DNA of 64,000 nucleotides, from NCBI GenBank assembly GCA_030668875.1, contig DAOVER010000004.1, forward strand, positions 15,626-79,625. The letters are read 5' to 3'. Position numbers and translations under genes: made by a program. The notes beneath the pieces are model-generated. The model was not told the origin of the DNA. It ran no database searches and saw only the letters and a program-made list of their open reading frames with translations. Each line of letters opens with the position of its first letter. Position 1 is the first letter of the stretch. This document shows, piece after piece, positions 2,710 to 56,022 of this stretch. This DNA is from Candidatus Heimdallarchaeota archaeon. Lineage in GTDB: Archaea > Asgardarchaeota > Heimdallarchaeia > Heimdallarchaeales > Heimdallarchaeaceae.

Positions 2710-2775
2710 AAACTTTTTCCTTCAGATTCATAAAACATTTAAAGATTCATATTCCAAATTCTTTAGCGAAGCCCA

Positions 2776-3369
2776 ATGACTAACTTCATCCAACGAACAT
2801 CTCAGACTATTCGCAGAAAGCTTGGCTATCCTGAAACATCGCTATTGGTTATGGGAAACAATCTTCCCGCGACACGTAACCGTGTTTTGCTTATGCGCTC
2901 TAATACTTCTTTAAATGAATTTATCATTGACAGCTGTTTGAATGAGCTTCCATATACTGAAAAACTAAAGTTCAAACCTAAACAATTTATCCCTTTCGAA
3001 GGTATTCTCTATCTTATAGATGCAACGAAAGAAGAAATGATTAAACATGAACGCAACTATTTCTGGGAAAAAATTATTTGGGATGAGGAAGTAGAAGATC
3101 TTCCTATAGCTGTCTGCGCTTACAACACTGATTTACAAGGAGCTTTGACTAGAGGAGAATTAATAGAAAACATGTCTCTCATACGCTTAACAGATCGTAT
3201 ATGGAACCTTTTTGAGGTTCCAGATGTGGATTCATTAATTGAATCTCTAAAATGGATGAAAAAGGTAATCCATATGGGTTACATAAAACCTTGGGTAGAA
3301 AAAGAAAAATTGTTAGAAAAAATACAACCTATTAAGGTTCAATTTCCTTCAGAAGAAGAAAATAATTAA
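2776..3369 (+). CDS. Ras-superfamily-like protein with degenerate G motifs (possible pseudo-GTPase); first gene of the cluster
   Basis: Layout resembles small GTPases: LLVMGNNLPATRN in the G1 position (no GKS/T), LYLIDATKEE in the G3 position (DTAGQE-like), VCAYNTDL in the G4 (NKxD) position. Lies 19 nt upstream of the next gene, which has its own SD. Confidence 0.35.
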   Translation: MTNFIQRTSQTIRRKLGYPETSLLVMGNNLPATRNRVLLMRSNTSLNEFIIDSCLNELPYTEKLKFKPKQFIPFEGILYLIDATKEEMIKHERNYFWEKIIWDEEVEDLPIAVCAYNTDLQGALTRGELIENMSLIRLTDRIWNLFEVPDVDSLIESLKWMKKVIHMGYIKPWVEKEKLLEKIQPIKVQFPSEEENN

Positions 3370-3388
3370 TAAATAAGAGGAATATACA

Positions 3389-4936
3389 ATGACAATTTCA
3401 ATTGAAAATATAATGAAGGATGGTTATTCTGGTTATTCCGTTCGTTCTATATTAATGAATCCAGAATTCCGTGATAGAGTTTCTAAAGACGTTACTGTTC
3501 GTGGTAATGAAGTTGGAAAAAAACTTGTTATGGATAAATTAGCTGTTGGTGGTAAAGTCCTAATTACAGGTCCAACAGGTGAAGCCAAAACTCTTTTTGC
3601 AAGAGTATTGCTTGACCACATTGTTAGAGAAATTAACAATTACAAATACCATATCGGCGGTTGTCCATTCTTAGAAGATGCCGGATACATTGTAGATATC
3701 ATCAATAACTTTCCATCAAATCCTTTTGCTGGAATTAGAGTTATGCAATCTCTATGTCCGTATTGTAGACAAAAAATCGAAGGTGTTTTATCTGATGGAA
3801 ACAGTTCTGTACAACTAGACAATACAAATAGCATACTTGAAATTTCTCCAAAAGAAGTAGTAAGTAGGTTAGGAAAACTCGATGCTACAAAAACACTAGT
3901 CAGAAGATCACAACTTGATCCAAGAAACGATCCTGAAAGTCTCTATATGCTACTTGCAGGTGTCGAAAACTTAGAAGAACTGTTTGGCAAAGAAACTCAA
4001 ACTACTTATGCCGCCACCTCACACAAGGTAGGTGTTCTTTCCCACGGTATATTAGTTGTGAATGAAATTCAGAGGCTCCCATTAACACTATTAGAATCAT
4101 TGATGGGTTTTCTTGAAGAACCAATGGGTATTAAATACAACATCCAAGGAGAACCAGTTTACATAGATGGTGCCGTAATCTTTACATCTAATGCACCACT
4201 GACAGTCTTTGGAGAAGAAAGTCAACCTATTATCAATCGTATTCCTGAAGTACTATGGCCCGCACGTTCTGTTGAAAGCAGAGAACAAATTATACGTGAT
4301 ATGTTTGAAGAACAGATTGTTCTATCACGAAAGAAAATCACAGCAAATCCTTCTATTATACAATTGCATGAATTGGAAAAAGGTTCTACAGATTTTGTTA
4401 GCAGACTTGCAGTAGATTTTCTTGCATATCTTGGAAATAATTCCTTACCTGCTAACCTAAAATCAAAGGGCATTCGTTCAGAAAGTCGTATGGCACGTAC
4501 CGATTTCTATTCTGGTCTTGATGAAATCCATGATCCACAAAGAAATCCTCACATAGATTTACGTACTATGAACAATATCATTGGTGAGACAGTGCTTTTA
4601 CAAGCTAGAGAAACAGCTACGGATGCCAATGTTATAACTCTGGAAAAGCTACGAAGTACAATGAATGCTTACGATATACCTGTTTCGATGCTCAATGATG
4701 CTCTTCAACAGATAAAGATTCTTTTGAGAACATCAATAAAAGAATCAGAAGTTTCTATAAGTGTTCAAGATATCTCTGAAGATATTTCAAAGATGAAAGC
4801 ACTAAGTGATAATGAACTAGCAGATCTGATTGTAAAGTTTGAAGGTTTAGATAAGTACAAAGACAAAATCCGAACAACAATAATTGAGAGTCTTAGACCA
4901 TCTTACGAGCAATTGTTAAGAGTAGATTACATCTAG
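3389..4936 (+). CDS. MoxR/ChlI-type AAA+ ATPase with a Cys-rich insertion and a C-terminal extension
   Basis: Walker A GPTGEAKT (MoxR-style GxPGxAKT); Walker B-like ILVVNEIQRL (Asn in place of Asp); sensor region VIFTSNAP; insertion HIGGCPF...CPYCRQ suggests a zinc-binding element. Confidence 0.6.
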   Translation: MTISIENIMKDGYSGYSVRSILMNPEFRDRVSKDVTVRGNEVGKKLVMDKLAVGGKVLITGPTGEAKTLFARVLLDHIVREINNYKYHIGGCPFLEDAGYIVDIINNFPSNPFAGIRVMQSLCPYCRQKIEGVLSDGNSSVQLDNTNSILEISPKEVVSRLGKLDATKTLVRRSQLDPRNDPESLYMLLAGVENLEELFGKETQTTYAATSHKVGVLSHGILVVNEIQRLPLTLLESLMGFLEEPMGIKYNIQGEPVYIDGAVIFTSNAPLTVFGEESQPIINRIPEVLWPARSVESREQIIRDMFEEQIVLSRKKITANPSIIQLHELEKGSTDFVSRLAVDFLAYLGNNSLPANLKSKGIRSESRMARTDFYSGLDEIHDPQRNPHIDLRTMNNIIGETVLLQARETATDANVITLEKLRSTMNAYDIPVSMLNDALQQIKILLRTSIKESEVSISVQDISEDISKMKALSDNELADLIVKFEGLDKYKDKIRTTIIESLRPSYEQLLRVDYI

Positions 4937-4949
4937 ACCGGCATAATTA

Positions 4950-6356
4950 GTGCCCAATGGAGATAATAGCATGCCCCATAGAATAAATTTCATAACAGCA
5001 GAAGAATTCACTGACCCTATTCAAGCATATGGAGACGTTGAATTCATCTTAGATTTTGAAGATGCTGCTCAAGTACTTAGGTTATGGCGTAATCCACATT
5101 TAGGAAGAAGTTCTCGTGAAGGAGCAGTTCTTTCTCTTGCTGCAAAAAATGCTGTGGCAATGGAGAATATTGTTCAAAAGATAATGACAACTTATTTGAC
5201 TGCTAACGAAGAAGAACGTTTACTAAACGAACTCAAAATCCTGCGGTTTATGGGTGATAGGATTCTCCCTGATGTATTGGAAAGAGTAAATCGCAATGAG
5301 CTTCAAACTCTGGAAGAAATTCTTAAGTACATACAAGATCTTCTTCGTAATCTTAAATACGAAGGATCAGTTGATTTAGACCAGCTGGCAGAAAAGCTCA
5401 ATCAACTGCAAGAGATAATTGATATTGAAATAACAGATGCTTTTGGTAGAAAGAAACGTATATCTAGAGAAAGTGTTATGGATTTACTTGGAAAAATCCT
5501 CGGGCGTTTTCTTTTAAAACAAATATCCGTGGCACCAATCGACGAAGTGCAGAAGAGACCTAGGGGCACTATCAGACTTAAAGAGACTTATAAGAGTGCA
5601 ATTTTGAGTTCTCAAAATATACCGCCAACTTCTGTTAAACAAGAAGACATAATTCGGGTGAAAAAAGATAGACGATCACTTGTGTATCTAATTGTGGACA
5701 TGAGTCAATCTATGAAAAAAGCTGTTTTTGAAGGTAAAATGTCAAGGCTAGATGGGGCACTCTTAACTAGTTTAAGTTTATACTATTACTTCAAAATAAT
5801 GAATCGTCGAAAAAGGAAAAGATTTGACATGTTTAAACTTGCCGTAGTTCCAGTTAGAAAGAACCCAACTGTCGTTGATGATGATAGTAAAATGGAAAAC
5901 TACCTTCTAACAGCTGACGCAAAGGGTAAGACTTACATGGTTCAAGCTATTCAGACCGCCATTGAACACGCAAAAAAGCAACGTGTGGATAAGGATATTG
6001 ATGTGTACTTCACAATAGTTACAGACGGTATGCCCAATGTTCCAACTTTTCCATATGATTATCGAAAAAATGAGGAGTTGCAGAAATACTTCTCTGAAAT
6101 TCAAACCAAAACGAAACCAGAAACAATAGATTGTTTGATTCAACTCAATGGGATTTTCAAACATCTTAAAAATGATAGAACAAGAAACTGGAACATCTCC
6201 TATTTCCTTATGGGGACTGAATCTCTACGTAATAAGGAGTTGTTCATTCACACAAAACAGATGTTGAAAGGTATAACACGACCCATTCTTATCGATCCTG
6301 CTCAGATAAAGAAACTGGGAGAACAAATTTTAAGGGAGAGTATGATGCATGCTTAA
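4950..6356 (+). CDS. von Willebrand factor A (VWA) domain protein with a MIDAS motif; MoxR partner
   Basis: LVYLIVDMSQSM (DxSxS MIDAS), downstream TDG motif (IVTDGMPN); helical N-terminal region; starts 14 nt after the AAA+ gene. Confidence 0.6.
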   Translation: MPNGDNSMPHRINFITAEEFTDPIQAYGDVEFILDFEDAAQVLRLWRNPHLGRSSREGAVLSLAAKNAVAMENIVQKIMTTYLTANEEERLLNELKILRFMGDRILPDVLERVNRNELQTLEEILKYIQDLLRNLKYEGSVDLDQLAEKLNQLQEIIDIEITDAFGRKKRISRESVMDLLGKILGRFLLKQISVAPIDEVQKRPRGTIRLKETYKSAILSSQNIPPTSVKQEDIIRVKKDRRSLVYLIVDMSQSMKKAVFEGKMSRLDGALLTSLSLYYYFKIMNRRKRKRFDMFKLAVVPVRKNPTVVDDDSKMENYLLTADAKGKTYMVQAIQTAIEHAKKQRVDKDIDVYFTIVTDGMPNVPTFPYDYRKNEELQKYFSEIQTKTKPETIDCLIQLNGIFKHLKNDRTRNWNISYFLMGTESLRNKELFIHTKQMLKGITRPILIDPAQIKKLGEQILRESMMHA

Positions 6357-7929
6357 AACCAAAACTGAATTTGATGAGATAGTCCGAGTTTATAATTTAG
6401 CAAGAGAAGATTTCAAAGCTCTTGTAGGCGAAACTCCTGAAAACTATCGTGTGTTGCTTTTTGTTGACCCAGATCTACACGTTTCGGTAAATAGAGTTGT
6501 AGAAATAACTGGCACTCCACAAGCTATTTTGACAGCTGAACAAATAACTCATCTGAAGTCTGCTCGTATAAACGATTTCTTGCCAGTTGGAAAAGAGACA
6601 GTCTATAATTCTCTCCCTACTTTGATTTATCTATCAGCCCCTTCATATGAACTTAACAAGGAACAGGAATTTACTCTTAGAGTAATGTTCATTCATGCTT
6701 TTGCTCATGCTTACATGAATGAAAAAACTGAGTCAAACTCAGCACGAACACTCTCCAGACTTTATCAGATAGACACTGTTTTGAAGGAACTAATGACAAA
6801 TAATGTTTTTCAGCTAAACAAAGAATCATCCGATGGGCATTCTTGGGCATGGCAATATTTCCAAGATTTAATTGGTGTAATTCGATTGTTCACCGAAGCT
6901 GGTGTAGAAGATTTTTACATTCCTCCTGAAATTGCTCGAAAATACACTCTATTCAATAATTTTTCAATTGAAGCTATTAACTATTTGTCAGAAAGAGCAA
7001 AAGTATCAAGGAAAAAACATCTTCACGAACTAATTGACGAAGGTTTTGCACATTATGTTCAAGCTAAAGGTATTGAATATCTTATAAAATCAGGAGATTA
7101 TGAGTTCAAGAAAAGTGATGAGGATAAAGAACCAAAATTACCTAATGAGTTGAAAGCATTTTTAGCTCCTCCCATTGGTGAATTTAGTTTAGCTGTAATG
7201 AGAAGGCTTGAAACAAAAGTTGAAAATGAAAAAGAGCTATTCAGCAAACTTTTCAGTTATAAATCAGATATTGATTTGTTGGAAGAATTTACTTGGGATG
7301 AAGTAAAGGATTTGCTTGCTGTAAATAAGAATCTGCATTCAGAAGGTGTTGTTGAGAAATGGCACTCTACACGAAGTAGGTGGACAGATATCTGGTCTGT
7401 TTATGCATATGGTTGGAAAATTGTTGAAGAATATACTAGAAAAGTATACAGAAAGAAGTTTTCAACTTTTGGTCAACTACAGGATGAAAAACCAAGAATA
7501 GAATCCAAAGGCTATGTTAAGGTTGATCAAAGAAAAGTGTATGTTTTTGAAGTTAATGACTATGGAATAGGAATAGATCAACTCATTATACTTCATAATC
7601 ACATGGCGCTGTATAGGGATGATTTTAAGACAATTCTTCCTGCATTTGCTGATGTAATTGTATTCAAGAAAATCGGTGGAATTCACGTTTCAACACTATT
7701 TGCTGTGCATAAAACAAAACACCAACCTCTATCTCCATATAATTTGCCGGTTGTAACCAGAGCTGTTCAAGTTACTAAACGAAAAGATGCTTACAAATTT
7801 GATTTAGATGAAGAATCTGAAGATAAGATCGATGTGAGCAATGTTGATTATACCTATTTACGCAAATTGACCCAACCTCAAAGAGGAGCAATTGCGTATT
7901 TAATAAAAGAAGGATTGTTTGAATTATGA
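6349..7929 (+). CDS. Hypothetical 526-aa protein, third gene of the MoxR-VWA cluster
   Basis: Overlaps the VWA gene by 8 nt (translational coupling). No recognizable domain. Contains FIHAFAHAY, an HxxxH motif that is not a canonical HExxH. Confidence 0.4.
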   Translation: MLKTKTEFDEIVRVYNLAREDFKALVGETPENYRVLLFVDPDLHVSVNRVVEITGTPQAILTAEQITHLKSARINDFLPVGKETVYNSLPTLIYLSAPSYELNKEQEFTLRVMFIHAFAHAYMNEKTESNSARTLSRLYQIDTVLKELMTNNVFQLNKESSDGHSWAWQYFQDLIGVIRLFTEAGVEDFYIPPEIARKYTLFNNFSIEAINYLSERAKVSRKKHLHELIDEGFAHYVQAKGIEYLIKSGDYEFKKSDEDKEPKLPNELKAFLAPPIGEFSLAVMRRLETKVENEKELFSKLFSYKSDIDLLEEFTWDEVKDLLAVNKNLHSEGVVEKWHSTRSRWTDIWSVYAYGWKIVEEYTRKVYRKKFSTFGQLQDEKPRIESKGYVKVDQRKVYVFEVNDYGIGIDQLIILHNHMALYRDDFKTILPAFADVIVFKKIGGIHVSTLFAVHKTKHQPLSPYNLPVVTRAVQVTKRKDAYKFDLDEESEDKIDVSNVDYTYLRKLTQPQRGAIAYLIKEGLFEL

Positions 7930-8699
7930 GTATTGCGAATTTTCTTAATGGATTAGGTATGGGTAGAAAATTACATAGTGAGAACCCACTTGACCGAGCT
8001 CACTTTGCTTTGTTTCAACAGATCAAGGGAAAGGCAAAAACAGTGAGAAAACTGCTTCCACTCCTAGAAGATTCGGAATGGAATGTGAGAAACTCAGCTT
8101 CTTCTTCTATACTATTTCTTGTTTCAAAATACCCAGAATCAAAGAAAGAGGTTCTATCTCACTTACATAGTTTTGTTGAAAAAAGTTCCTTATCTGTCAA
8201 ACTATCAATATTAGAAGTATTGGGGAAACTAAAACATTATGATTCTAAACCCTATCTCATTAAAATGCTTGAAGAAAGTGGTTATGATCTGCAATATGCA
8301 ACTATAAGAGCAATTGGATACTTAGATGATGTAGATGTTTTATATCCGCTCAAAAATGTTGTATATGCCCGTGATTACATTACAAAACGAGCAGCTATTC
8401 TATCAGTAATTAGAATTACATCTTCTGTTAAAGAAGAAGAGATTATCAAGAAACTAACTCCACATATTCATCTGATAATTGAATCCTATCTAGAATTGAA
8501 CAAATTAGATGAAGTTGTAACCAAAATATTAGATTATGGTGATCCTGAATCATTCCCAGATATGAAAGGGTATACTGAATCCGAAATAGTAAAACTAGAA
8601 TCTCTTATTGAGACAAAAGATTATAGTGTAGAAATGTATCAAAATTTCGCTAAGTTAATTTATCCTACATACTTCCCTATAGCAGAAAATGTAAAGTAA
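7926..8699 (+). CDS. HEAT-repeat (PBS-lyase-like) protein, fourth gene of the cluster
   Basis: Repeated ~30-aa helical units (EWNVRNSA..., SVKLSILEVLGKL, LQYATIRAIGYL, ITKRAAILSVIRI). 4-nt ATGA overlap with the upstream gene. Confidence 0.5.
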   Translation: MSIANFLNGLGMGRKLHSENPLDRAHFALFQQIKGKAKTVRKLLPLLEDSEWNVRNSASSSILFLVSKYPESKKEVLSHLHSFVEKSSLSVKLSILEVLGKLKHYDSKPYLIKMLEESGYDLQYATIRAIGYLDDVDVLYPLKNVVYARDYITKRAAILSVIRITSSVKEEEIIKKLTPHIHLIIESYLELNKLDEVVTKILDYGDPESFPDMKGYTESEIVKLESLIETKDYSVEMYQNFAKLIYPTYFPIAENVK

Positions 8700-8707
8700 A
8701 GGTTGAA

Positions 8708-8968
8708 TTAAGCTTCAAACTTATTGATACAATATTCAACGAACTCTTTTTTTACTCCTTTTGTTACTTCTTCATTCTTCCACTTTTCACGTATAAACTC
8801 TCTCACCTCTTCAGGGCAAAGATGATAACAAGTTGTAACAAGAGCGTATCCCATCATTCTGTTGCGAATCGTTTGAGAATCTAAGAGATTTAACGCTCTT
8901 CCAAGATGAGGATAGTTTTTTTGTAATTCTATTGAATTTCTTTTCTTTTCTTCTCCTATGGTGATCAT
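8708..8968 (-). CDS. Hypothetical small protein (86 aa)
   Basis: ORF only; no recognizable motif. Confidence 0.3.
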   Translation of the reverse strand: MITIGEEKKRNSIELQKNYPHLGRALNLLDSQTIRNRMMGYALVTTCYHLCPEEVREFIREKWKNEEVTKGVKKEFVEYCINKFEA

Positions 8969-21337: not shown

Positions 21338-22258
21338 GTGATTGGTCAAATGAGTTTGAATGAAAAAACATCATTTCGTTTTCTTCTAATGACATATCAA
21401 ACCAACCGTTCTCTTCTTCTAGTGCTGTTTCCATTTCTGATAATTAGCAATATAGTGGGGTGGATTTACAAATATTATGAGATTATAACCATTGACCTAT
21501 CGTTTTTTGTAGGAGGAGAGGGGGGCGTTTCATTCCAGATCATAGATGGAATAATTTTCGTTTCAGTGGCTGTAATAGGTAGTGTACTCATCGTGTTAAC
21601 GCTAAAATACAATTTAGAACGATTTTTGACAATACTTTTTTCAATAGGATTATTTCTTTCTCCTATCAGCATTCTGTGGCTTCATGGGTATTTGATTGAC
21701 TTTTATTTACAAAATGGTCAATATTGGTTTGAAATATCATTTACTTTGGTTGGATTAATAACGGGGATTCTTACTTTATTGGTATTTGTGTTTAACAAGG
21801 GAAATAAATATTCTCGAAATTTCTTGGTTGTTTTTCTGGGCATTGTTCTGGGTTCTGTGTTTGGATTATTACTATCCTTGGCTACATTTCTGACATTGAT
21901 TACACTAATTTCCATATTTGACATTTACTCAGTTTTCAAAGGACCAATAAATAAGATGTTTCAGAAAGCAAATGTGCCCTATAGACCGATTCGCAATCCT
22001 CTTGTGAAAAAGGAAACCGCTATAGGCATTGGTGATTTTATCTTCTACTCTTCACTTGTTACATTTGCTGCAACAAATTTTGGATTAACAATAGGTTTTG
22101 TTTCTATAGCTGGTTTATTACTTGGAGTAGTTTTTACTGAGCGACTTTTGATGAGGTTTGGAAAATTTCCGGGATTACCTTTGCCAATTTTTCTATCTCT
22201 CGCATTCTTAGGTTTTGGATGGTTGATATCAAATTATATTTCATCTTTTATCACTTGA
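21338..22258 (+). CDS. Presenilin/signal-peptide-peptidase homolog (A22 intramembrane aspartyl protease)
   Basis: Multi-TM protein with FDIYSVF (YD motif), IGIGDFIFYS (GxGD motif) and a PGLPLP PAL-like motif, in the expected order. Confidence 0.6.
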   Translation: MIGQMSLNEKTSFRFLLMTYQTNRSLLLVLFPFLIISNIVGWIYKYYEIITIDLSFFVGGEGGVSFQIIDGIIFVSVAVIGSVLIVLTLKYNLERFLTILFSIGLFLSPISILWLHGYLIDFYLQNGQYWFEISFTLVGLITGILTLLVFVFNKGNKYSRNFLVVFLGIVLGSVFGLLLSLATFLTLITLISIFDIYSVFKGPINKMFQKANVPYRPIRNPLVKKETAIGIGDFIFYSSLVTFAATNFGLTIGFVSIAGLLLGVVFTERLLMRFGKFPGLPLPIFLSLAFLGFGWLISNYISSFIT

Positions 22259-31415: not shown

Positions 31416-31511
31416 GGGCCAGTAGTCTAGTCCGGATAAGGCACCAGCCTTCGGAAGAAATATTCTGAAGACAGCTGGGGGTCGCAGGTTCAAGTCCTGC
31501 CTGGTCCGCCA
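31416..31511 (+). tRNA. tRNA-Arg (anticodon TCG) with an ~18-nt intron at the canonical 37/38 position; encoded CCA
   Basis: Acceptor GGGCCAG/CTGGTCC, D-stem GTCT/AGGC with A14 and GG18-19, anticodon stem CCAGC/GCTGG, loop CTTCGG^intron^A, T-arm GCAGG-TTCAAGT-CCTGC. Intron AAGAAATATTCTGAAGAC pairs with the exon loop (CTTCGG/CTGAAG). Confidence 0.7.
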
Positions 31512-48353: not shown

Positions 48354-50870
48354 CTATTTTAGCTCATCCACTTTAGCCCTTAATTTCTCAACAAGATCAG
48401 TCTTTTCCCAAGTGAAATCGGGCAATTCTCTTCCAAAATGTCCATAGCAAGATGTTTTTTGATAAATTGGTCTCTTTAATTTAAGGTATTCAATAATATT
48501 TCCTGGTCTGAAGTCGAATACACAAAGAATAGCTTCCTTTAGAATTTCTATTGAAACTTTTTCAGTACCAAAACATTCAATATTAACTGCTAAGGGCTTG
48601 GGTTCACCAATTGCATAAGAAACTTGAACTTCACACTTATCAGCTAATTCTGCAGCAACAACATTCTTTGCGACATATCTTGCTGCATAAGAAGCTGATC
48701 GATCTACTTTTGAAGGATCTTTACCAGAATTATGACATATGAACCCGTTTGCCGTGAAAGAGTGCACGCCTGGTACTTCAAAATCATAAACATGATTTTC
48801 ATTTTCGGTTATAGACTTTAGTTCTGAATAGTAATGATTCAGAATATAGTATGATTTTAGATACTCAAAATCTGGATCGTCATCAAATCGATTTTTATAA
48901 CAATCTAAGAATTCTACTAATTTTGTATATGTTAATTCCTTAGTCCCTTTATAACTTTGACTTCGAAGTAAACGACCTATTTTTGCTTTATCCTCTTGAT
49001 GTTCTTTTGGTGATAGCTTATCCCATAATCGTTTCAACCTACTTTTTTGATTGGGAATCCTCCAAAGGTTTCTCTTATTAGAAAAATCAACTGAATTCAA
49101 GACTCTAGATTTTCTTGTTAATCCAAAATTGATTTCTTTTTTAAAGGCTGTTATGCTATTTGTACCTTTAATTCGAAGATGATAGCGAATTCTCTTAGAT
49201 TCCACTATTCTACCATCTATTTCTGATTTAAGTCCTCGCGCACCAACTTCTTGTATAGAACTAATAATTCCAAAATTTAGCAGTAATTGTTGTGTTTCCT
49301 CGATTAACTGCTTTGATGTTGAAGTAAGAGTTATTTCAATTGAATTTAGGTTTCTTCCAGTTTTTCTTATGGTTCCATCGGTGTCAAATAAACCTCTAAT
49401 AAATGAAGCAATTACAGATTTTTGTGCTTTAAAAATACTGTTTGGAACACTTTTTTCCCAAGACCTTGAATAATCTAATCCAAGTGTGTAAAGAAACTCC
49501 CTAAGTTCTACCCCACAATAATGTGCCCAATGACCGAATATTTTCCCTTTATCGCCAAATAGCTGTTCATAGAGATTCTGAACAGAATTTTTCATCTCAT
49601 CTTCCCATACACATATCTGTATACCATTTCTAGATGTACACAAACCATCACCAATAAGCAATCCTAAGAGATATCCATATTCTTCTGTAAGTGTATTGGG
49701 AAATTTAAATTCATTAAATCGTCGAGTTCCTTCTTTATGCTGAAATTCAAAGTTAATTGTAGAATTCTTACCAAATAATCGATTTTTCCTTTGAATAGCA
49801 ATCCAATCATCAGTTTGTAAAGTGTCTAATCTCCTCCAAACATAATTGCCGTTTTTATCAATTATTCTTATATTTTGATTAAAAGAACCTTCCAGCTTGT
49901 AACCTTCTTTTGTTTCTACAATTAATGTTTTCATTTTTCCATTGTCTATCCATCTCTTAATGGGTGACGGTGATATGTCTGTTTTGATTAAGGTTCCTTC
50001 TTCAATACCATCTAGTTCAGATATGGTTGCTATTCCATTTTCATAATTAATCAAGCTGCTACCTGCAACGCAGAATGCTCCTCCACCGTGAGAATCTACT
50101 CCTCCGTAAGTGTCAACGATTATTTTTCTTCCTGTTAATCCTGAATCGCCATGTGGTCCCCCTGTAACAAATCTCCCTGTTCGATTGATGAAGATTTTAG
50201 TTTTTTCATCTACTAAGTAAGTTGGGATAACTGCTTCAATAACTTCTTTTTTCAATCCAGATTCAATTTCTTCATTTGTTGCTTCTTCTGCATGTTGGGC
50301 AGCAATAACAATAGCTTCTATTCGAATTGGCTTATCATTCTCATATTCAACTGCCACTAGTGATTTGCCATCTGGGCGTAGAAAGGGCAAAGTACCATTT
50401 TTTCGAACTTCAGTGAGTTTCATTGTTATTTTATGGGCTAGTACTATAGGTAATGGCATAAATTCTGGAGTTTCTTTTGTTGCATATCCATACATAATAC
50501 CTTGATCTCCTGCCCCTTGTTCCTCAACCATGTCTTTTTTTACACCTTGAGCTATGTCTTCTGATTGAGAGTGCACTGTGTTTATTATAGCACATCCTCT
50601 ATAATCAAAACCAATACTTGAATCATTATACCCGATTTCTTTAATAATATCACGAATGATTTTTTCATATTCAACAGTACACACTTTTGATGTGGTAATT
50701 TCACCACCTACTAAAACAAGACCTGTTGTAACAAAACATTCACATGCTACATGTGCATCAGGATCATCTTTTAAAATAGCATCGAGGATCGCATCAGAAA
50801 TTTGATCACAAATTTTGTCAGGATGCCCCTCTGTTACAGATTCTGAAGAAATAATTTTACGTAATACCAT
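48354..50870 (-). CDS. metK: Bacterial-type S-adenosylmethionine synthetase (MetK) interrupted by a 448-aa intein
   Basis: N-extein ends ...HGGGAF, C-extein starts [18 protein letters not shown]. The extein sum is 390 aa with the MetK motifs [12 protein letters not shown] and [13 protein letters not shown]. Confidence 0.9.
48729..50072 (-). mobile_element. Intein with a LAGLIDADG homing endonuclease, inserted in the MetK GGGAF|SGKDP motif
   Basis: Starts with Cys (CVAGSS), ends with HN and is followed by a +1 Ser; two LAGLIDADG motifs ([22 protein letters not shown]). Boundaries come from residue counting (intein residues 267-714). Confidence 0.85.
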
Positions 50871-53913: not shown

Positions 53914-56022
53914 CTATTCTAGCAATAATCTAAGAGTTACGAGTTGACCATTAATTTCATTCTTAAGTTTTTCAATGGTCTGTTGTCTTTCACGGAATAG
54001 TTTAACATAAGATTCTTTGGTCATGCTTTTCTTAGTTCTATATTCTTGTTGAAGCGCTCTTAGATTTCTTCTTTCTTCGTAGAGTTTTCTTTCAGCAATC
54101 TCGATTTTCTGAACAGATTCTTTGTATCTTCCACCAAGAGCTGATAAACTTATCTTTGTTGTCTTCAAGGACTCTTCTTCGGCTCTTAGGCGTTTTTCTA
54201 GCTTAGCACGTAATTCTTTACCTTCTTTTGCTTTCATTTTCTTACTTGCTATTTTCGCCTTTACCTGTCTGAGACGTTCTCTAATAGATAAAACTTCTTC
54301 ATATTGTTTTACAAATTCTTCAATCTCATCAACAGGAATGAATTCTTCTTCTATCTCGGCTTCAGAAAGTCCTTTTATTCGTTTTGCTGACCAACGAAGT
54401 CCAAGGTATATAGCAAAGATAAGACCCACTGCCATAAATTGCCAGAAGAATGTGATAAACATGTTAAAACCAGTGTAACTATATTCTATAATTAACGATG
54501 AGTTATCGCTTCCCGAAAAATTTGTGAACTGTAATCCTACCACTCTCTTTGTTCCTAGTGCAGTAAAATCGAATAATCTCCCATAATCAATTATCATGTC
54601 CTGATAAGGATCTGTATTCCAATAATCAAGTTCCTTATATACTGCTCCCTTAGGAAGAATTATTTCAAGATTTAGATTATCTATGGACCAATTAACAATT
54701 GAACTTGGAGAAAGTGTGAGTTTGTAGTTTGAACTTCCTTGTTCTTTCTCTAGAACACTCTCCATTGGAACAGTGTATACAATTGTAAATTTCATTTCTT
54801 CTCCATGGAATAGAGGTTCTCTTGGAAAGATAAGCAAAGCTTGATGTCCTTCAAATGTACTATCCCTTAGGTTGTAAGCACCTCTTTCAAAATATCCCTC
54901 TTCATTTATCTGATACTCTTGATTTAAGGATCCAGTGTCATCATACAAATCAATAACAGTAACGTTTTTTGGAAACACTATCGGAAATGAGTTTAGAGCA
55001 TACAGTTTTGGAGAGAGATGATCATAATCTTCAGGTCTTTCACTACCTAAGAAAACGATATTCTGTGTTTCAGTTATTTGTACTAGTCCATAAGGATCAA
55101 TTTCTACAACTCTATGAACTTCTGTTGCTTTAAACAGCAATGTGCTTGACTGTTGTTCTGCATCAGCAGTGCTTACTGAAGATATATGTACATTAAGGAG
55201 AAGATCGTCAGAATATGATTGACTATAATTAAAGGGCAATCTTGTGATGTTTGACCATTTAAGAGTACCACTTACTGCATCATTGATAACAGTTATCCCT
55301 TCAGTATCATTTCCAGGAGATATTCGGAATTCTGCTACATCTAAAAATAGGTCACCACCTTGTTTTTCAACTTTGACTGACCCATTAACAATTGGTATGT
55401 TGTTAATAAGAGGATACAACAATTCTTCATAATGAGTAATCTGTTCTCCTACATAAAGCTCAAATGTATAAGGCATAGAAAATTCAATGTACGAATTGAT
55501 GAAATAAACGTCATTTTGGTGAATTTCTGTTTTATTCACGTTGAAGGGAATGACGAAAGTTGTATAGTTCAATAATTTGTTAAATGTATATATCCGAGTA
55601 GCATTACCTTCTATTAGTGACTTATAAGTGGCATTAGCTACACGAAAACTGGCGTAAGTTATTTTATCAGCATGAATATTAGGCAATGTATAATTAAAAT
55701 ATGTTAAATTTAGATTACCAATCACTTTTAATTCAATACTATCCGAGATTGAAAGTACACCAAAATTCTCTATGTTAATTGATCTATTTACTATAGATGT
55801 TACATTTAATCCATAGTCGATGACACCGATATCATTGTATCCTTCATCACTGTACACCATGCCACTTGGGGTAAGGAGGGGTGTACTATTCACAATATTC
55901 GATAGATCTGTTTGAGGGTTCATTTCTGCGGAACCCTGTGTTGAATTCAGCATAGCTGAAAATGATATGCTAACGATGACAAGTAATGTAAAAGTTAACA
56001 TTATACCTTTGTTTTTGTGCAT
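53914..56022 (-). CDS. Type I membrane glycoprotein with a long cytoplasmic coiled-coil tail
   Basis: Signal peptide; sequon-rich ~520-aa ectodomain; a single TM (FWQFMAVGLIFAIYLGL); ~160-aa K/R/E-rich heptad tail. Confidence 0.5.
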   Translation of the reverse strand: MHKNKGIMLTFTLLVIVSISFSAMLNSTQGSAEMNPQTDLSNIVNSTPLLTPSGMVYSDEGYNDIGVIDYGLNVTSIVNRSINIENFGVLSISDSIELKVIGNLNLTYFNYTLPNIHADKITYASFRVANATYKSLIEGNATRIYTFNKLLNYTTFVIPFNVNKTEIHQNDVYFINSYIEFSMPYTFELYVGEQITHYEELLYPLINNIPIVNGSVKVEKQGGDLFLDVAEFRISPGNDTEGITVINDAVSGTLKWSNITRLPFNYSQSYSDDLLLNVHISSVSTADAEQQSSTLLFKATEVHRVVEIDPYGLVQITETQNIVFLGSERPEDYDHLSPKLYALNSFPIVFPKNVTVIDLYDDTGSLNQEYQINEEGYFERGAYNLRDSTFEGHQALLIFPREPLFHGEEMKFTIVYTVPMESVLEKEQGSSNYKLTLSPSSIVNWSIDNLNLEIILPKGAVYKELDYWNTDPYQDMIIDYGRLFDFTALGTKRVVGLQFTNFSGSDNSSLIIEYSYTGFNMFITFFWQFMAVGLIFAIYLGLRWSAKRIKGLSEAEIEEEFIPVDEIEEFVKQYEEVLSIRERLRQVKAKIASKKMKAKEGKELRAKLEKRLRAEEESLKTTKISLSALGGRYKESVQKIEIAERKLYEERRNLRALQQEYRTKKSMTKESYVKLFRERQQTIEKLKNEINGQLVTLRLLLE

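Follow-up and report, generated by a model that had tools for sequence, protein, structure and literature searches.

A Heimdallarchaeia-specific operon probably encoding a protein-remodelling complex of the MoxR/VWA kind

The five open reading frames between positions 2776 and 8699, on the plus strand of a 64-kb window (the whole stretch of DNA analysed here), form a genuine, tightly packed operon, and we consider it probable that they encode the subunits of a single housekeeping complex of the MoxR/VWA kind, which would remodel proteins as a chaperone or maturation machine and would be specific to Heimdallarchaeia. The window is derived from an Asgard archaeon of the family Heimdallarchaeaceae. 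All five proteins currently carry hypothetical or generic names only, and full-text searching of the literature found no paper describing the cluster, in line with the proposal of the first-pass annotation that the cluster as a whole is an undescribed system.

The layout proposed in that annotation, five co-directional genes in one operon with a NUDIX hydrolase gene diverging upstream, was borne out on the sequence, coordinates and junctions included (Table 1). Genes 1 and 2 are separated by a 19-nt gap and genes 2 and 3 by a 13-nt gap, followed by an 8-nt overlap between genes 3 and 4 and a 4-nt ATGA overlap between genes 4 and 5. The start of gene 3 is probably the ATG at 4971 rather than the GTG at 4950; a GGAG is found 10 nt upstream of this ATG and the gene 3 orthologues are 461 aa in length with the N-terminus MPHRI. 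With this start, the gap between genes 2 and 3 would be 34 nt. Each gene had been thought to possess its own SD, and SD-like purine runs are indeed found before genes 2, 4 and 5 and before ATG 4971, but not upstream of the ATG of gene 1, where a TATA-like box, TTTAAA, is present instead, ~35 nt upstream and inside the 66-nt spacer. Judged from its sequence, this spacer is the probable promoter region. The G+C content is uniform over the region (0.32–0.38), and all five genes are under strong purifying selection, with dN/dS values of 0.02–0.11 in comparison with two related genomes.

Table 1. Features of the operon and of its upstream flank, in window coordinates.
Feature	Coordinates	Strand	Basis or remark
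NUDIX gene	2188-2709	minus	divergent neighbour of gene 1
Spacer NUDIX/gene 1	2710..2775	+	66 nt, between divergent genes; read from sequence
Gene 1, Arf/Arl-family pseudo-GTPase, 197 aa	2776..3369	+	Pfam Arf, PDB profile search
Gene 2, divergent MoxR/chelatase-like AAA+ ATPase, 515 aa	3389..4936	+	pre-sensor-1 hairpin / helix-2 insert superclade
Gene 3, VWA/MIDAS protein, 468 aa	4950..6356	+	invariant MIDAS; true start probably 4971
Gene 4, 526 aa, zincin-like N-terminal part and conserved C-terminal domain	6349..7929	+	
Gene 5, HEAT-repeat protein, 257 aa	7926..8699	+	Pfam HEAT_2

The product of gene 2 displays the elements of an AAA+ core, namely Walker A, Walker B, sensor 1, arginine finger and sensor 2, and K67 of Walker A, E226, N268, R284 and R392 do not change in any of the 31 sequences compared. 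On the basis of these invariant catalytic residues, the protein is predicted to be competent for ATP hydrolysis. The Walker B motif is atypical in that its Asp position is occupied by Asn225, also invariant in the 31 sequences, and the resulting N-E motif could indicate that hydrolysis is slow or resembles a switch, and that the protein is not a processive motor. The closest folds are those of RavA, BchI and MoxR, with RavA as the top structural match, and the fold places the protein within the helix-2-insert/pre-sensor-1 β-hairpin clade. In sequence searches, however, the matches in Pfam were limited to weak ones with Sigma54_activat and AAA_5; the window protein did not match AAA_3 (PF07726), which was also absent among the best 25 of the 54 Pfam families matched by 31 gene 2 members, NCBIfam gave no match, and the PDB profile search returned 0 matches at E < 10. 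Of the MoxR-vWA core that had been recognised initially, the fold and the VWA partner stand, whereas no MoxR family model was matched, and the term MoxR-type is valid for gene 2 by fold and partner only, not by family membership. The protein also contains an insertion (~130 aa) and, at its C-terminus, ~200 aa of helical extension. A RuvBL-like reading, prompted by the position of the insertion between Walker A and Walker B, was rejected on alignment length, the structural alignment with RuvBL covering ~120 residues versus >200 for RavA, BchI and MCM. A zinc ribbon in the insertion (Pfam Zn_ribbon_HMPTM, E = 0.02) was also rejected, there being no conserved metal site; the distant clade has serine in place of each of C91, C123 and C126.

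The gene 3 protein begins with a helical domain, in which a WRNP motif is invariant, and ends with its VWA domain, no effector domain being fused to its C-terminus. The MIDAS residues, D250-x-S252-x-S254, T328 and D359, do not vary among 13 sequences whose identity goes down to 24%. The window protein scores 19.8 bits with VWA_2, compared with a cutoff of 27, and the same model matches 11 of 13 orthologues at E-values of up to 1, the best being 5e-5. The PDB profile search returned weak generic VWA matches and nothing more, and no AAA+ match was found by Pfam in the N-terminal part. In docking of the NorQD type, a β-hairpin finger extends from the VWA domain into the AAA+ pore, and the stretch of ~50 residues between TDGMPN(363) and W414 could form such a finger.

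Two parts can be distinguished in the gene 4 protein, a mainly helical and putatively zincin-like N-terminal part (~residues 30–370) and a strongly conserved C-terminal domain (~380–526) that was matched to no fold. The former may resemble a zincin catalytic core with helical surroundings; Foldseek of the gene 4 model against the PDB gave no significant match. The likeness to the gluzincins of families M1, M32 and M4 would reside in the core fold, whereas their HExxH motif and general-base Glu are lost; the motif reads HAFAH in Heimdallarchaeaceae, with Ala in place of Glu, and both His residues are missing in the other clades, the Kariarchaeaceae-type protein included. The residues E125 and E147 do not vary. 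Pfam searches with all members of the gene 4 alignment gave no match and the PDB profile search returned spurious coiled-coil matches only. A placement of genes 3 and 4 in an established pathway had been raised at the outset as the outcome that would speak against a new system; no strong match of this kind was obtained for either gene with Pfam, NCBIfam, PADLOC, PHROGs or PDB profiles.

For gene 1, the earlier description as a degenerate GTPase with broken motifs is upheld and can be refined to Arf/Arl-like. Pfam Arf matches residues 74–163 only (E = 4.7e-7, 29.9 bits versus a cutoff of 22.3), and the PDB profile search retrieved Arl3 (1e-9), as well as Arl1, an Asgard Arf and Arf6, over residues 66–170 only. 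The homology with Arf/Arl small GTPases spans the β4–α5 half, the C-terminal ~100 residues, whereas their defining G1–G4 motifs are lost; GK[ST] is missing and the P-loop position reads G(D/N)xxPATRNR (GEKNDTRD in the P-loop region of the protein from locus L043), DxxG is missing, and the NKxD position reads YN(S/T)(N/D). Because G1–G4 are missing, gene 1 is classed as a pseudo-GTPase; its dN/dS is 0.04–0.06. Gene 5 had been called a HEAT-repeat protein and HEAT_2 matches it above the gathering score (39.1 bits versus a cutoff of 27.7, E = 9.2e-10), as it does gene 5 orthologues, including that of L039. It is a probable scaffold and the least conserved subunit, with 25–28% identity in the distant clade.

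We detected 108 homologues of the AAA+ protein, 79 of the VWA protein and 28 of the 526-aa protein, all of them from Heimdallarchaeia bar a few records labelled as other Asgard or archaeal, and a search of 1.84 billion representatives with the profile of the 526-aa protein yielded no more than 20 clusters. Conservation of the neighbourhood, the check proposed in the first-pass annotation, was clear for genes 2–5, whose order AAA+, VWA, 526-aa, HEAT is kept in ~30 loci with differing flanks, including clades where the flanks are unrelated and the AAA+ identity is 55–58%; between families this identity is 50–58%. Wherever a locus extended far enough, genes 2–5 were collinear. Genes 2 and 3 adjoin in nearly all loci and, where gene 3 homologues have locus tags, these are next to the tags of homologues of the AAA+ protein and of gene 4. 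The module outlasts rearrangement in deep lineages: in L039 the AAA+ gene is divergent from the VWA gene, gene 4 and the HEAT gene, and in L045 the latter three are together while the AAA+ gene, on the same contig, is ~40 kb distant. In L041, L042 and L044, the AAA+ gene is not next to other cluster genes. Gene 1 is first in the cluster in three clades, namely Heimdallarchaeaceae, L043 and the LC_2 genome (L047), and is displaced from this position in L033. A ParB_N protein of ~245 aa adjoins the cluster in L033, L034, L038, L046 and L047 and is absent from the window; we rejected it as a subunit, and its position is probably relict synteny. The genome scan gave one locus per genome, and within Heimdallarchaeaceae the synteny of the cluster is stable. 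The single locus per genome, the low dN/dS, the level of AAA+ identity between families and the uniform G+C are best read as the signs of a housekeeping system.

In bacterial MoxR/VWA pairs, the VWA domain docks on the AAA+ ring and its MIDAS grips acidic residues of the client (PMC9976466, PMC13036017), and by analogy both features are likely to be common to these pairs and to the operon. In NorQ-NorD, CbbQ-CbbO and RavA-ViaA, as here, an AAA+ protein with helix-2 insert and pre-sensor-1 hairpin is encoded beside a VWA partner, and the N-terminal domain and C-terminal VWA domain with complete MIDAS of NorD and CbbO are mirrored by gene 3. From these three pairs we infer that the operon products form a complex with a ring and an adaptor. 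Gene 2 would assemble into the ATP-hydrolysing AAA+ ring, on which gene 3 would dock through its C-terminal VWA domain, and the MIDAS would bind a surface carboxylate of the client protein while the N-terminal helical domain would provide specificity. ATP hydrolysis would then be passed through the VWA domain in order to remodel the client. The catalytically dead, zincin-like gene 4 protein and the HEAT protein may act as non-enzymatic subunits for client binding or scaffolding, and the Arf-derived gene 1 protein, its nucleotide switching lost, may have a structural or localising role. The operon differs from the three bacterial pairs in that its AAA+ protein has no sequence-level MoxR membership, carries the N-E Walker B and is extended to 515 aa by its insertion and helical extension. 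It also contains three extra conserved subunits (pseudo-GTPase, putative pseudo-zincin and HEAT), has no neighbouring client gene and is found in Heimdallarchaeia only. Three observations speak against the remodelling complex, namely the invariant Asn in Walker B, the separate position of the AAA+ gene in L041, L042 and L044, and the finding of no metalloenzyme or other candidate client among the conserved neighbours.

The clear Arf/Arl ancestry of gene 1 also suggests a different arrangement, which we regard as unlikely, where the Arf-derived and HEAT proteins would be central to a membrane-associated complex of an organising or trafficking type, through membrane recruitment or coating, and the AAA+/VWA pair would only assemble or recycle it. 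In L039 and L045, where gene 1 was not seen in or near the cluster, the gene 5 counterparts (391 aa and 424 aa, respectively) have two N-terminal transmembrane helices each and a small 4-TM protein is encoded within the cluster, and in L043 a Roadblock/LC7 gene is found directly 3' of the HEAT gene. However, every nucleotide-binding motif of gene 1 is lost, which rules out a role as a switch. The HEAT match is generic, with Adaptin_N (E = 0.004) not significant, and no homology was detectable between the small 4-TM proteins of L039 and L045. In the clade of L034, L038 and L031, gene 1 is missing from the cluster and the HEAT protein is not a transmembrane one, and the Roadblock neighbour was seen in one clade only. 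A role like that of NorQ-NorD, CoxD-CoxE or CbbQ-CbbO, as a dedicated metal-cofactor insertion factor or activase for a single metalloenzyme, perhaps respiratory, that is specific to Heimdallarchaeia, would be a narrower version of our main explanation, and we hold it to be rather improbable. Heimdallarchaeia have respiratory enzymes that other Asgard classes are not known to have, and the system is confined to this class; both points count in favour of such a role. The best-studied MoxR/VWA pairs also act in this way (PMC9976466, PMC13036017). A further point in favour is a gene for the RuBisCO large subunit, two genes away from the AAA+ gene in L039; it was seen once and, as a single occurrence, is treated as coincidence.

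A hint in the first-pass annotation that the cluster could belong among conflict systems did not survive. An anti-virus system of the MoxR-vWA ternary type, with VMAP or iSTAND, would share with the operon a core of MoxR-like AAA+ and vWA proteins joined with further proteins, one of them inactive and peptidase-like, and inactive peptidase domains do occur in such ternary systems (Kaur et al. 2020, PMC7159879). Here, however, no VMAP or iSTAND component is present, no effector is fused to the vWA C-terminus and the gene order differs from VMAP-MoxR-vWA. PADLOC matches were marginal and insignificant, no significant match was obtained with PHROGs and no viral relatives emerged from the IMG/VR scan, and on these results a defence or viral origin was rejected. 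The distribution of conflict systems is patchy, paralogous, fast-diversifying and mobile (PMC7159879), the opposite of a single-copy, vertically inherited and strongly conserved locus with stable synteny in Heimdallarchaeaceae, and we consider this explanation very unlikely and close to refuted. The chance that the operon encodes a Mg- or Co-chelatase of the BchI/BchD/BchH or CobNST type is slighter still. The absence of a CobN/ChlH-like partner had been remarked on before, and our searches agree, as neither the operon nor the 64-kb window nor any of the related loci contains a large subunit like BchH or CobN; chelatase identity was rejected on this ground. In addition, the VWA protein lacks the AAA+-like N-terminal half of BchD, and any likeness of gene 4 is to zincins and not to CobN.

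The remodelling complex that we favour can also be set beside larger assemblies. The Bat operon of Bacteroides (MoxR-DUF58-VWA-TPR) and, likewise, yehLMPQ of E. coli are multi-gene MoxR operons, where a MoxR-like ATPase, one or more VWA proteins and α-solenoid or uncharacterised partners are encoded together and the client is not known. The partners differ, since the solenoid here is HEAT and not TPR and is accompanied by zincin-like and Arf-like proteins, and HMM searches with Pfam and NCBIfam detected no homology with the Bat or yehLMPQ partners. In eukaryotes, midasin/Rea1 and VWA8 have the same AAA+ superclade joined with a MIDAS-bearing VWA domain, and the operon is found in the archaeal class nearest to eukaryotes. 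A more far-reaching proposal, which we consider doubtful, is that the operon would represent a class of AAA+/MIDAS machine that has so far gone unrecognised, originated in Heimdallarchaeia and is diagnostic of them, its ATPase being a clade outside the described MoxR subfamilies with an N-E Walker B. Such a machine would be tethered to the membrane by the transmembrane HEAT protein in Hodarchaeales-like lineages or by the Arf-derived pseudo-GTPase in others, would serve a cell-biological process peculiar to the archaea most closely related to eukaryotes, and might relate to the stock that gave rise to eukaryotic AAA+/MIDAS proteins such as midasin and VWA8.

Of the archaea, Heimdallarchaeia are nearest to the eukaryotic stem, and therefore multi-subunit machines conserved in the lineages of this class that were sampled, and detected in no others, are candidates for lineage-defining cell biology. 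The operon joins a strongly conserved yet very divergent AAA+ protein to a MIDAS adaptor and two "dead" members of well-known enzyme families, one of them an Arf-type GTPase and the other a putative zincin peptidase. Should its role turn out to be the routine maturation of a single enzyme, it would be of specialist interest only. The client, once found, would explain the function of the five-protein system, which is conserved across the Heimdallarchaeial lineages sampled, and would extend the MoxR/VWA paradigm beyond bacteria, including the recruitment of pseudo-enzymes as adaptor subunits.

ORF analysis recovered the five co-directional genes exactly where the first-pass annotation had placed them, the successive junctions being gaps of 19 and 13 nt followed by overlaps of 8 and 4 nt, and with the NUDIX gene as divergent upstream neighbour across a 66-nt spacer from gene 1. 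The assignment of an SD sequence to every gene held for genes 2, 4 and 5, each preceded by an SD-like purine run, and for gene 3 when read from the ATG at 4971, but not for gene 1, which has none and instead carries a TTTAAA box ~35 nt before its ATG, inside the spacer. Because GGAG lies 10 nt upstream of the ATG at 4971 and the gene 3 orthologues are 461 aa long with the N-terminus MPHRI, this is more probably the true start. The G+C content of the region is uniform (0.32-0.38) and dN/dS against two related genomes was 0.02-0.11 for all five genes; all five, including the "degenerate" gene 1, are genuine and strongly constrained. The HEAT gene is directly followed by an oppositely oriented ORF of 86 aa, which is conserved there in most Heimdallarchaeaceae loci (42-91% identity) and has no Pfam match.

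Coordinates of the cluster genes and of other features in the window and in related loci (L numbers; positions within that locus)
Feature	Locus	Position	Strand	Size
Gene 1, Arf-like	window	2776-3369	+	197 aa
Gene 2, AAA+	window	3389-4936	+	515 aa
Gene 3, VWA	window	4950-6356 (as first called)	+	468 aa
Gene 4	window	6349-7929	+	526 aa
Gene 5, HEAT repeat	window	7926-8699	+	257 aa
ORF after gene 5	window	8708-8968	-	86 aa
Presenilin-like	window	21338-22258	+	306 aa
tRNA	window	31416-31508	+	93 nt
MetK-type synthetase	window	48354-50870	-	838 aa
Ribophorin I homologue	window	53914-56022	-	702 aa
RNA polymerase A'' subunit with intein	L002/L033	1-4485	-	
KH/beta-CASP nuclease with intein	L042	14585-17335	+	
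ParB_N	L033	6257-6988		
ParB_N	L034	12305-13081	-	
ParB_N	L038	12300-13043	-	
ParB_N	L046	13253-14008	-	
ParB_N	L047	5640-6356		
WD40 beta-propeller	L037	12373-13683	+	
Conserved protein ahead of AAA+	L041	9365-9943		192 aa
Conserved protein ahead of AAA+	L044	5835-6413		192 aa
RuBisCO large subunit	L039	12147-13514	-	
Roadblock/LC7	L043	13507-13908	+	

Scanning a single genome for each GTDB species yielded 34 loci, one per genome and all Heimdallarchaeota-type, and by tblastn and ORF analysis genes 2-3-4-5 are collinear in every locus of sufficient length. Synteny extends in Heimdallarchaeaceae to the PALP, NUDIX and UvrB/UvrC genes on the flanks, whereas a distant clade (L031, L033-L038) keeps the four genes together despite unrelated flanks (RNA polymerase A, FKBP and PAN in L033), at identities of 55-58% for AAA+, 44-49% for VWA, 35-37% for gene 4 and 25-28% for HEAT. 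In a third clade (L043, AAA+ 52% identical) the order is Arf-like, AAA+, VWA, gene 4, HEAT, with different flanks again and a Roadblock/LC7 gene immediately after HEAT. The gene 1 orthologue directly precedes AAA+ in an LC_2 genome (L047) and has moved two genes upstream, on the opposite strand, in L033, while in L034, L038 and L031 the first position is taken by a different, cysteine-rich protein of ~193 aa without significant Pfam match. In a deep lineage (L039; AAA+ 35% identical, VWA 24%, E = 5e-35, gene 4 22%, 1e-17) AAA+ is divergent from the VWA, gene 4 and HEAT genes; in a Hodarchaeales-type genome these three lie together (L045) and AAA+ (L041) is found ~40 kb from them on the contig that they share, and AAA+ is likewise separate in L042 and L044. 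The neighbourhood conservation that the first-pass annotation proposed to check was thus found across clades, and it indicates a four-gene core, genes 2-5, to which gene 1 belongs ancestrally in no fewer than three or four clades, a pattern that subunits of one complex would be expected to show.

Several other genes were seen at these loci. A ParB_N-domain protein of ~245 aa, with copies 35-57% identical and none in the 64-kb window, recurs beside or near the cluster in Kariarchaeaceae/LC_2-type clades at varying position and strand. The WD40 gene of L037 follows HEAT and is itself followed by glycine-cleavage H and P genes. In the Hodarchaeales-type L041 and L044, a protein with weak winged-helix matches (copies 66% identical) replaces gene 1, and RIO1, a KH protein and SRP54 are nearby in both genomes. 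CbbQ-CbbO is a MoxR/VWA RuBisCO activase, and the single occurrence of a RuBisCO large-subunit gene two genes from AAA+ in L039 is probably a coincidence.

A Logan contig with an exact copy of gene 4 also has genes 1-3, likewise identical, and the beginning of gene 5; all other homologues bear Heimdallarchaeia names, the exceptions being a few records, probably mislabelled MAGs, under other Asgard or archaeal labels. Gene 4 gave 28 matches in a word-indexed search; searched exhaustively by profile against 1.84 billion cluster representatives, it gave 20, about 8 of them full-length clusters. Profile searches gave 108 matches for AAA+, in Heimdallarchaeaceae, Kariarchaeaceae, LC_2 and Hodarchaeota/Hodarchaeales-type MAGs, and 79 for VWA, similarly distributed. 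Among the representatives, the named proteins belong to Kariarchaeaceae, Hodarchaeota and one "Promethearchaeota" MAG, and records with any name call the proteins hypothetical or bear the generic JGI/NCBI labels "MoxR-like ATPase", "Mg-chelata..." and "VWA domain-containing protein". No relative was found in IMG/VR.

Gene 2 retains the motifs of an AAA+ ATPase, invariant in 31/31 family members: Walker A GPTGEAKT (K67), Walker B hhhh-N225-E226-IQR, sensor 1 N268 (FTSNAP), R284 (IINR) where MoxR/chelatase proteins have the xxDRF arginine, and a sensor 2-like DLR392T in the lid. The Walker B aspartate is asparagine in all 31, and NEIQR otherwise parallels the MoxR motif DEINR. The AF2 model (pLDDT 76, pTM 0.79) places a beta-hairpin immediately ahead of the sensor 1 strand, and a ~130-residue helical insertion separates Walker A from Walker B; within it the invariant segment DPRxDPESLYMLLAGVENLE (177-196) is modelled with low confidence and may be an interface that orders only upon assembly. 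Pfam matches are weak (Sigma54_activat and AAA_5 in 30/31 members, Mg_chelatase in 16/31), the MoxR model AAA_3 gives no match to gene 2 of the window and is absent among the families listed for the 31 members, and a family-profile search of the PDB returned nothing even at E < 10. Gene 2 is therefore placed in the helix-2-insert/pre-sensor-1-hairpin superclade, as a very divergent family of its own. The label MoxR-type stands for the predicted fold, which is MoxR/chelatase-like, but by sequence gene 2 falls in no described MoxR subfamily. A zinc ribbon was rejected, as the candidate cysteines are serines in the distant clade.

The C-terminal half of gene 3 is a VWA domain, as first proposed, with a complete MIDAS (D250-x-S252-x-S254, T328, D359) that is invariant down to 24% identity. 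Its ~240 N-terminal residues are helical with an invariant WRNP motif, and NorD and CbbO have the same layout, in which a linker joins an N-terminal domain to a C-terminal VWA. In the NorQ-NorD pair, a VWA finger reaches into the pore of the AAA+ hexamer, the MIDAS binds carboxylates on the client surface and the client is remodelled as ATP is hydrolysed, a mechanism that the authors propose as general for MoxR/VWA pairs (PMC9976466, PMC13036017).

Gene 4, earlier described as lacking a recognizable domain, was assigned to no family by any sequence method, including Pfam, NCBIfam and PDB profile searches. Its AF2 model (pLDDT 77, pTM 0.80) has a strand-helix-strand unit followed by long helices 104-126 and 131-160, which fits a zincin core; since Foldseek against the PDB gave no significant match, we hold this predicted fold with moderate confidence. 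In Heimdallarchaeaceae the first of these helices bears H116-A-F-A-H120, an HExxH motif with Ala in place of the catalytic Glu, and the other clades have no histidines at this site, so the family is not a peptidase and putative pseudo-zincin is the description that suits it best. Residues E125 and E147 are invariant. The C-terminal domain (~380-526) is the most conserved part, with motifs QLxxLxNH, LPxxxDV, SPYxLPxxTRAxQV and DYxxLxxLxxPQ, and is poorly modelled.

Gene 5 is the fastest-evolving subunit, and its HEAT-repeat identity was borne out by HEAT_2 (39 bits). In L039 and L045 the corresponding proteins are longer, with two N-terminal transmembrane helices, and each of these clusters encodes a small 4-TM protein, without detectable mutual homology. 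A PDB profile search showed that gene 1, taken for Ras-like, is homologous to Arf/Arl over beta4-alpha5 only (Arl3 at 1e-9, Arl1, Asgard Arf). The broken motifs extend further than noted: the P-loop (G1) is replaced by G(D/N)xxPATRNR, DxxG (G3) is absent and NKxD (G4) is YN(S/T)(N/D). The orthologues in L043, L047 and L033 are degenerate to an equal degree. At a dN/dS of 0.04-0.06, gene 1 is a conserved pseudo-GTPase rather than a decaying gene.

From the observed linkage, motifs, folds and distribution we infer that the five genes most likely encode one housekeeping complex, in which gene 2 would form an ATP-hydrolysing AAA+ ring, gene 3 a MIDAS adaptor, genes 4 and 5 two non-enzymatic binding or scaffold subunits and gene 1 a pseudo-GTPase subunit. 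By analogy with NorQD, CbbQO and RavA-ViaA, a client would be remodelled while one of its acidic residues is bound to the MIDAS metal; no conserved neighbour across the loci examined points to this client. The hint of a conflict system in the first-pass annotation found no support and we regard such a function as very unlikely: PADLOC matches were marginal and insignificant, PHROGs gave nothing significant, no VMAP/iSTAND component or effector domain is present, and the cluster is vertically inherited, single-copy and strongly constrained. The operon, the 64-kb window and the related loci all lack a large subunit, which excludes a chelatase and is in keeping with the CobN/ChlH-like subunit already recorded as missing, and the proposed profile searches gave no strong match placing genes 3 and 4 in a known pathway. 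A membrane-associated role, for which the membrane-anchored forms of HEAT, the descent of gene 1 from Arf and, in a single clade, the neighbouring Roadblock gene leave room, seems improbable to us compared with a housekeeping complex.

Elsewhere in the window, the MetK-type S-adenosylmethionine synthetase (Pfam S-AdoMet_synt N, M and C domains) is split by an intein carrying a LAGLIDADG homing-endonuclease domain, and inteins also occur in two genes of related Heimdallarchaeia. The homologue (E = 9e-15) of Ribophorin I, an oligosaccharyltransferase subunit typical of eukaryotes, and the presenilin-like protein (E = 1e-9) are consistent with the Asgard origin of the window. The tRNA, found by Rfam (50.8 bits) and not called by ARAGORN, is probably an archaeal intron-containing one.

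The housekeeping complex would resemble the MoxR/VWA chaperone pairs in its proposed mode of working and differ from them in its three extra conserved subunits; to our knowledge, no such subunits have been described with these pairs. Full-text literature searches found no description of the cluster, in agreement with its earlier reading as an undescribed system. The operon would encode a strongly conserved, lineage-defining machine in the archaea closest to eukaryotes.
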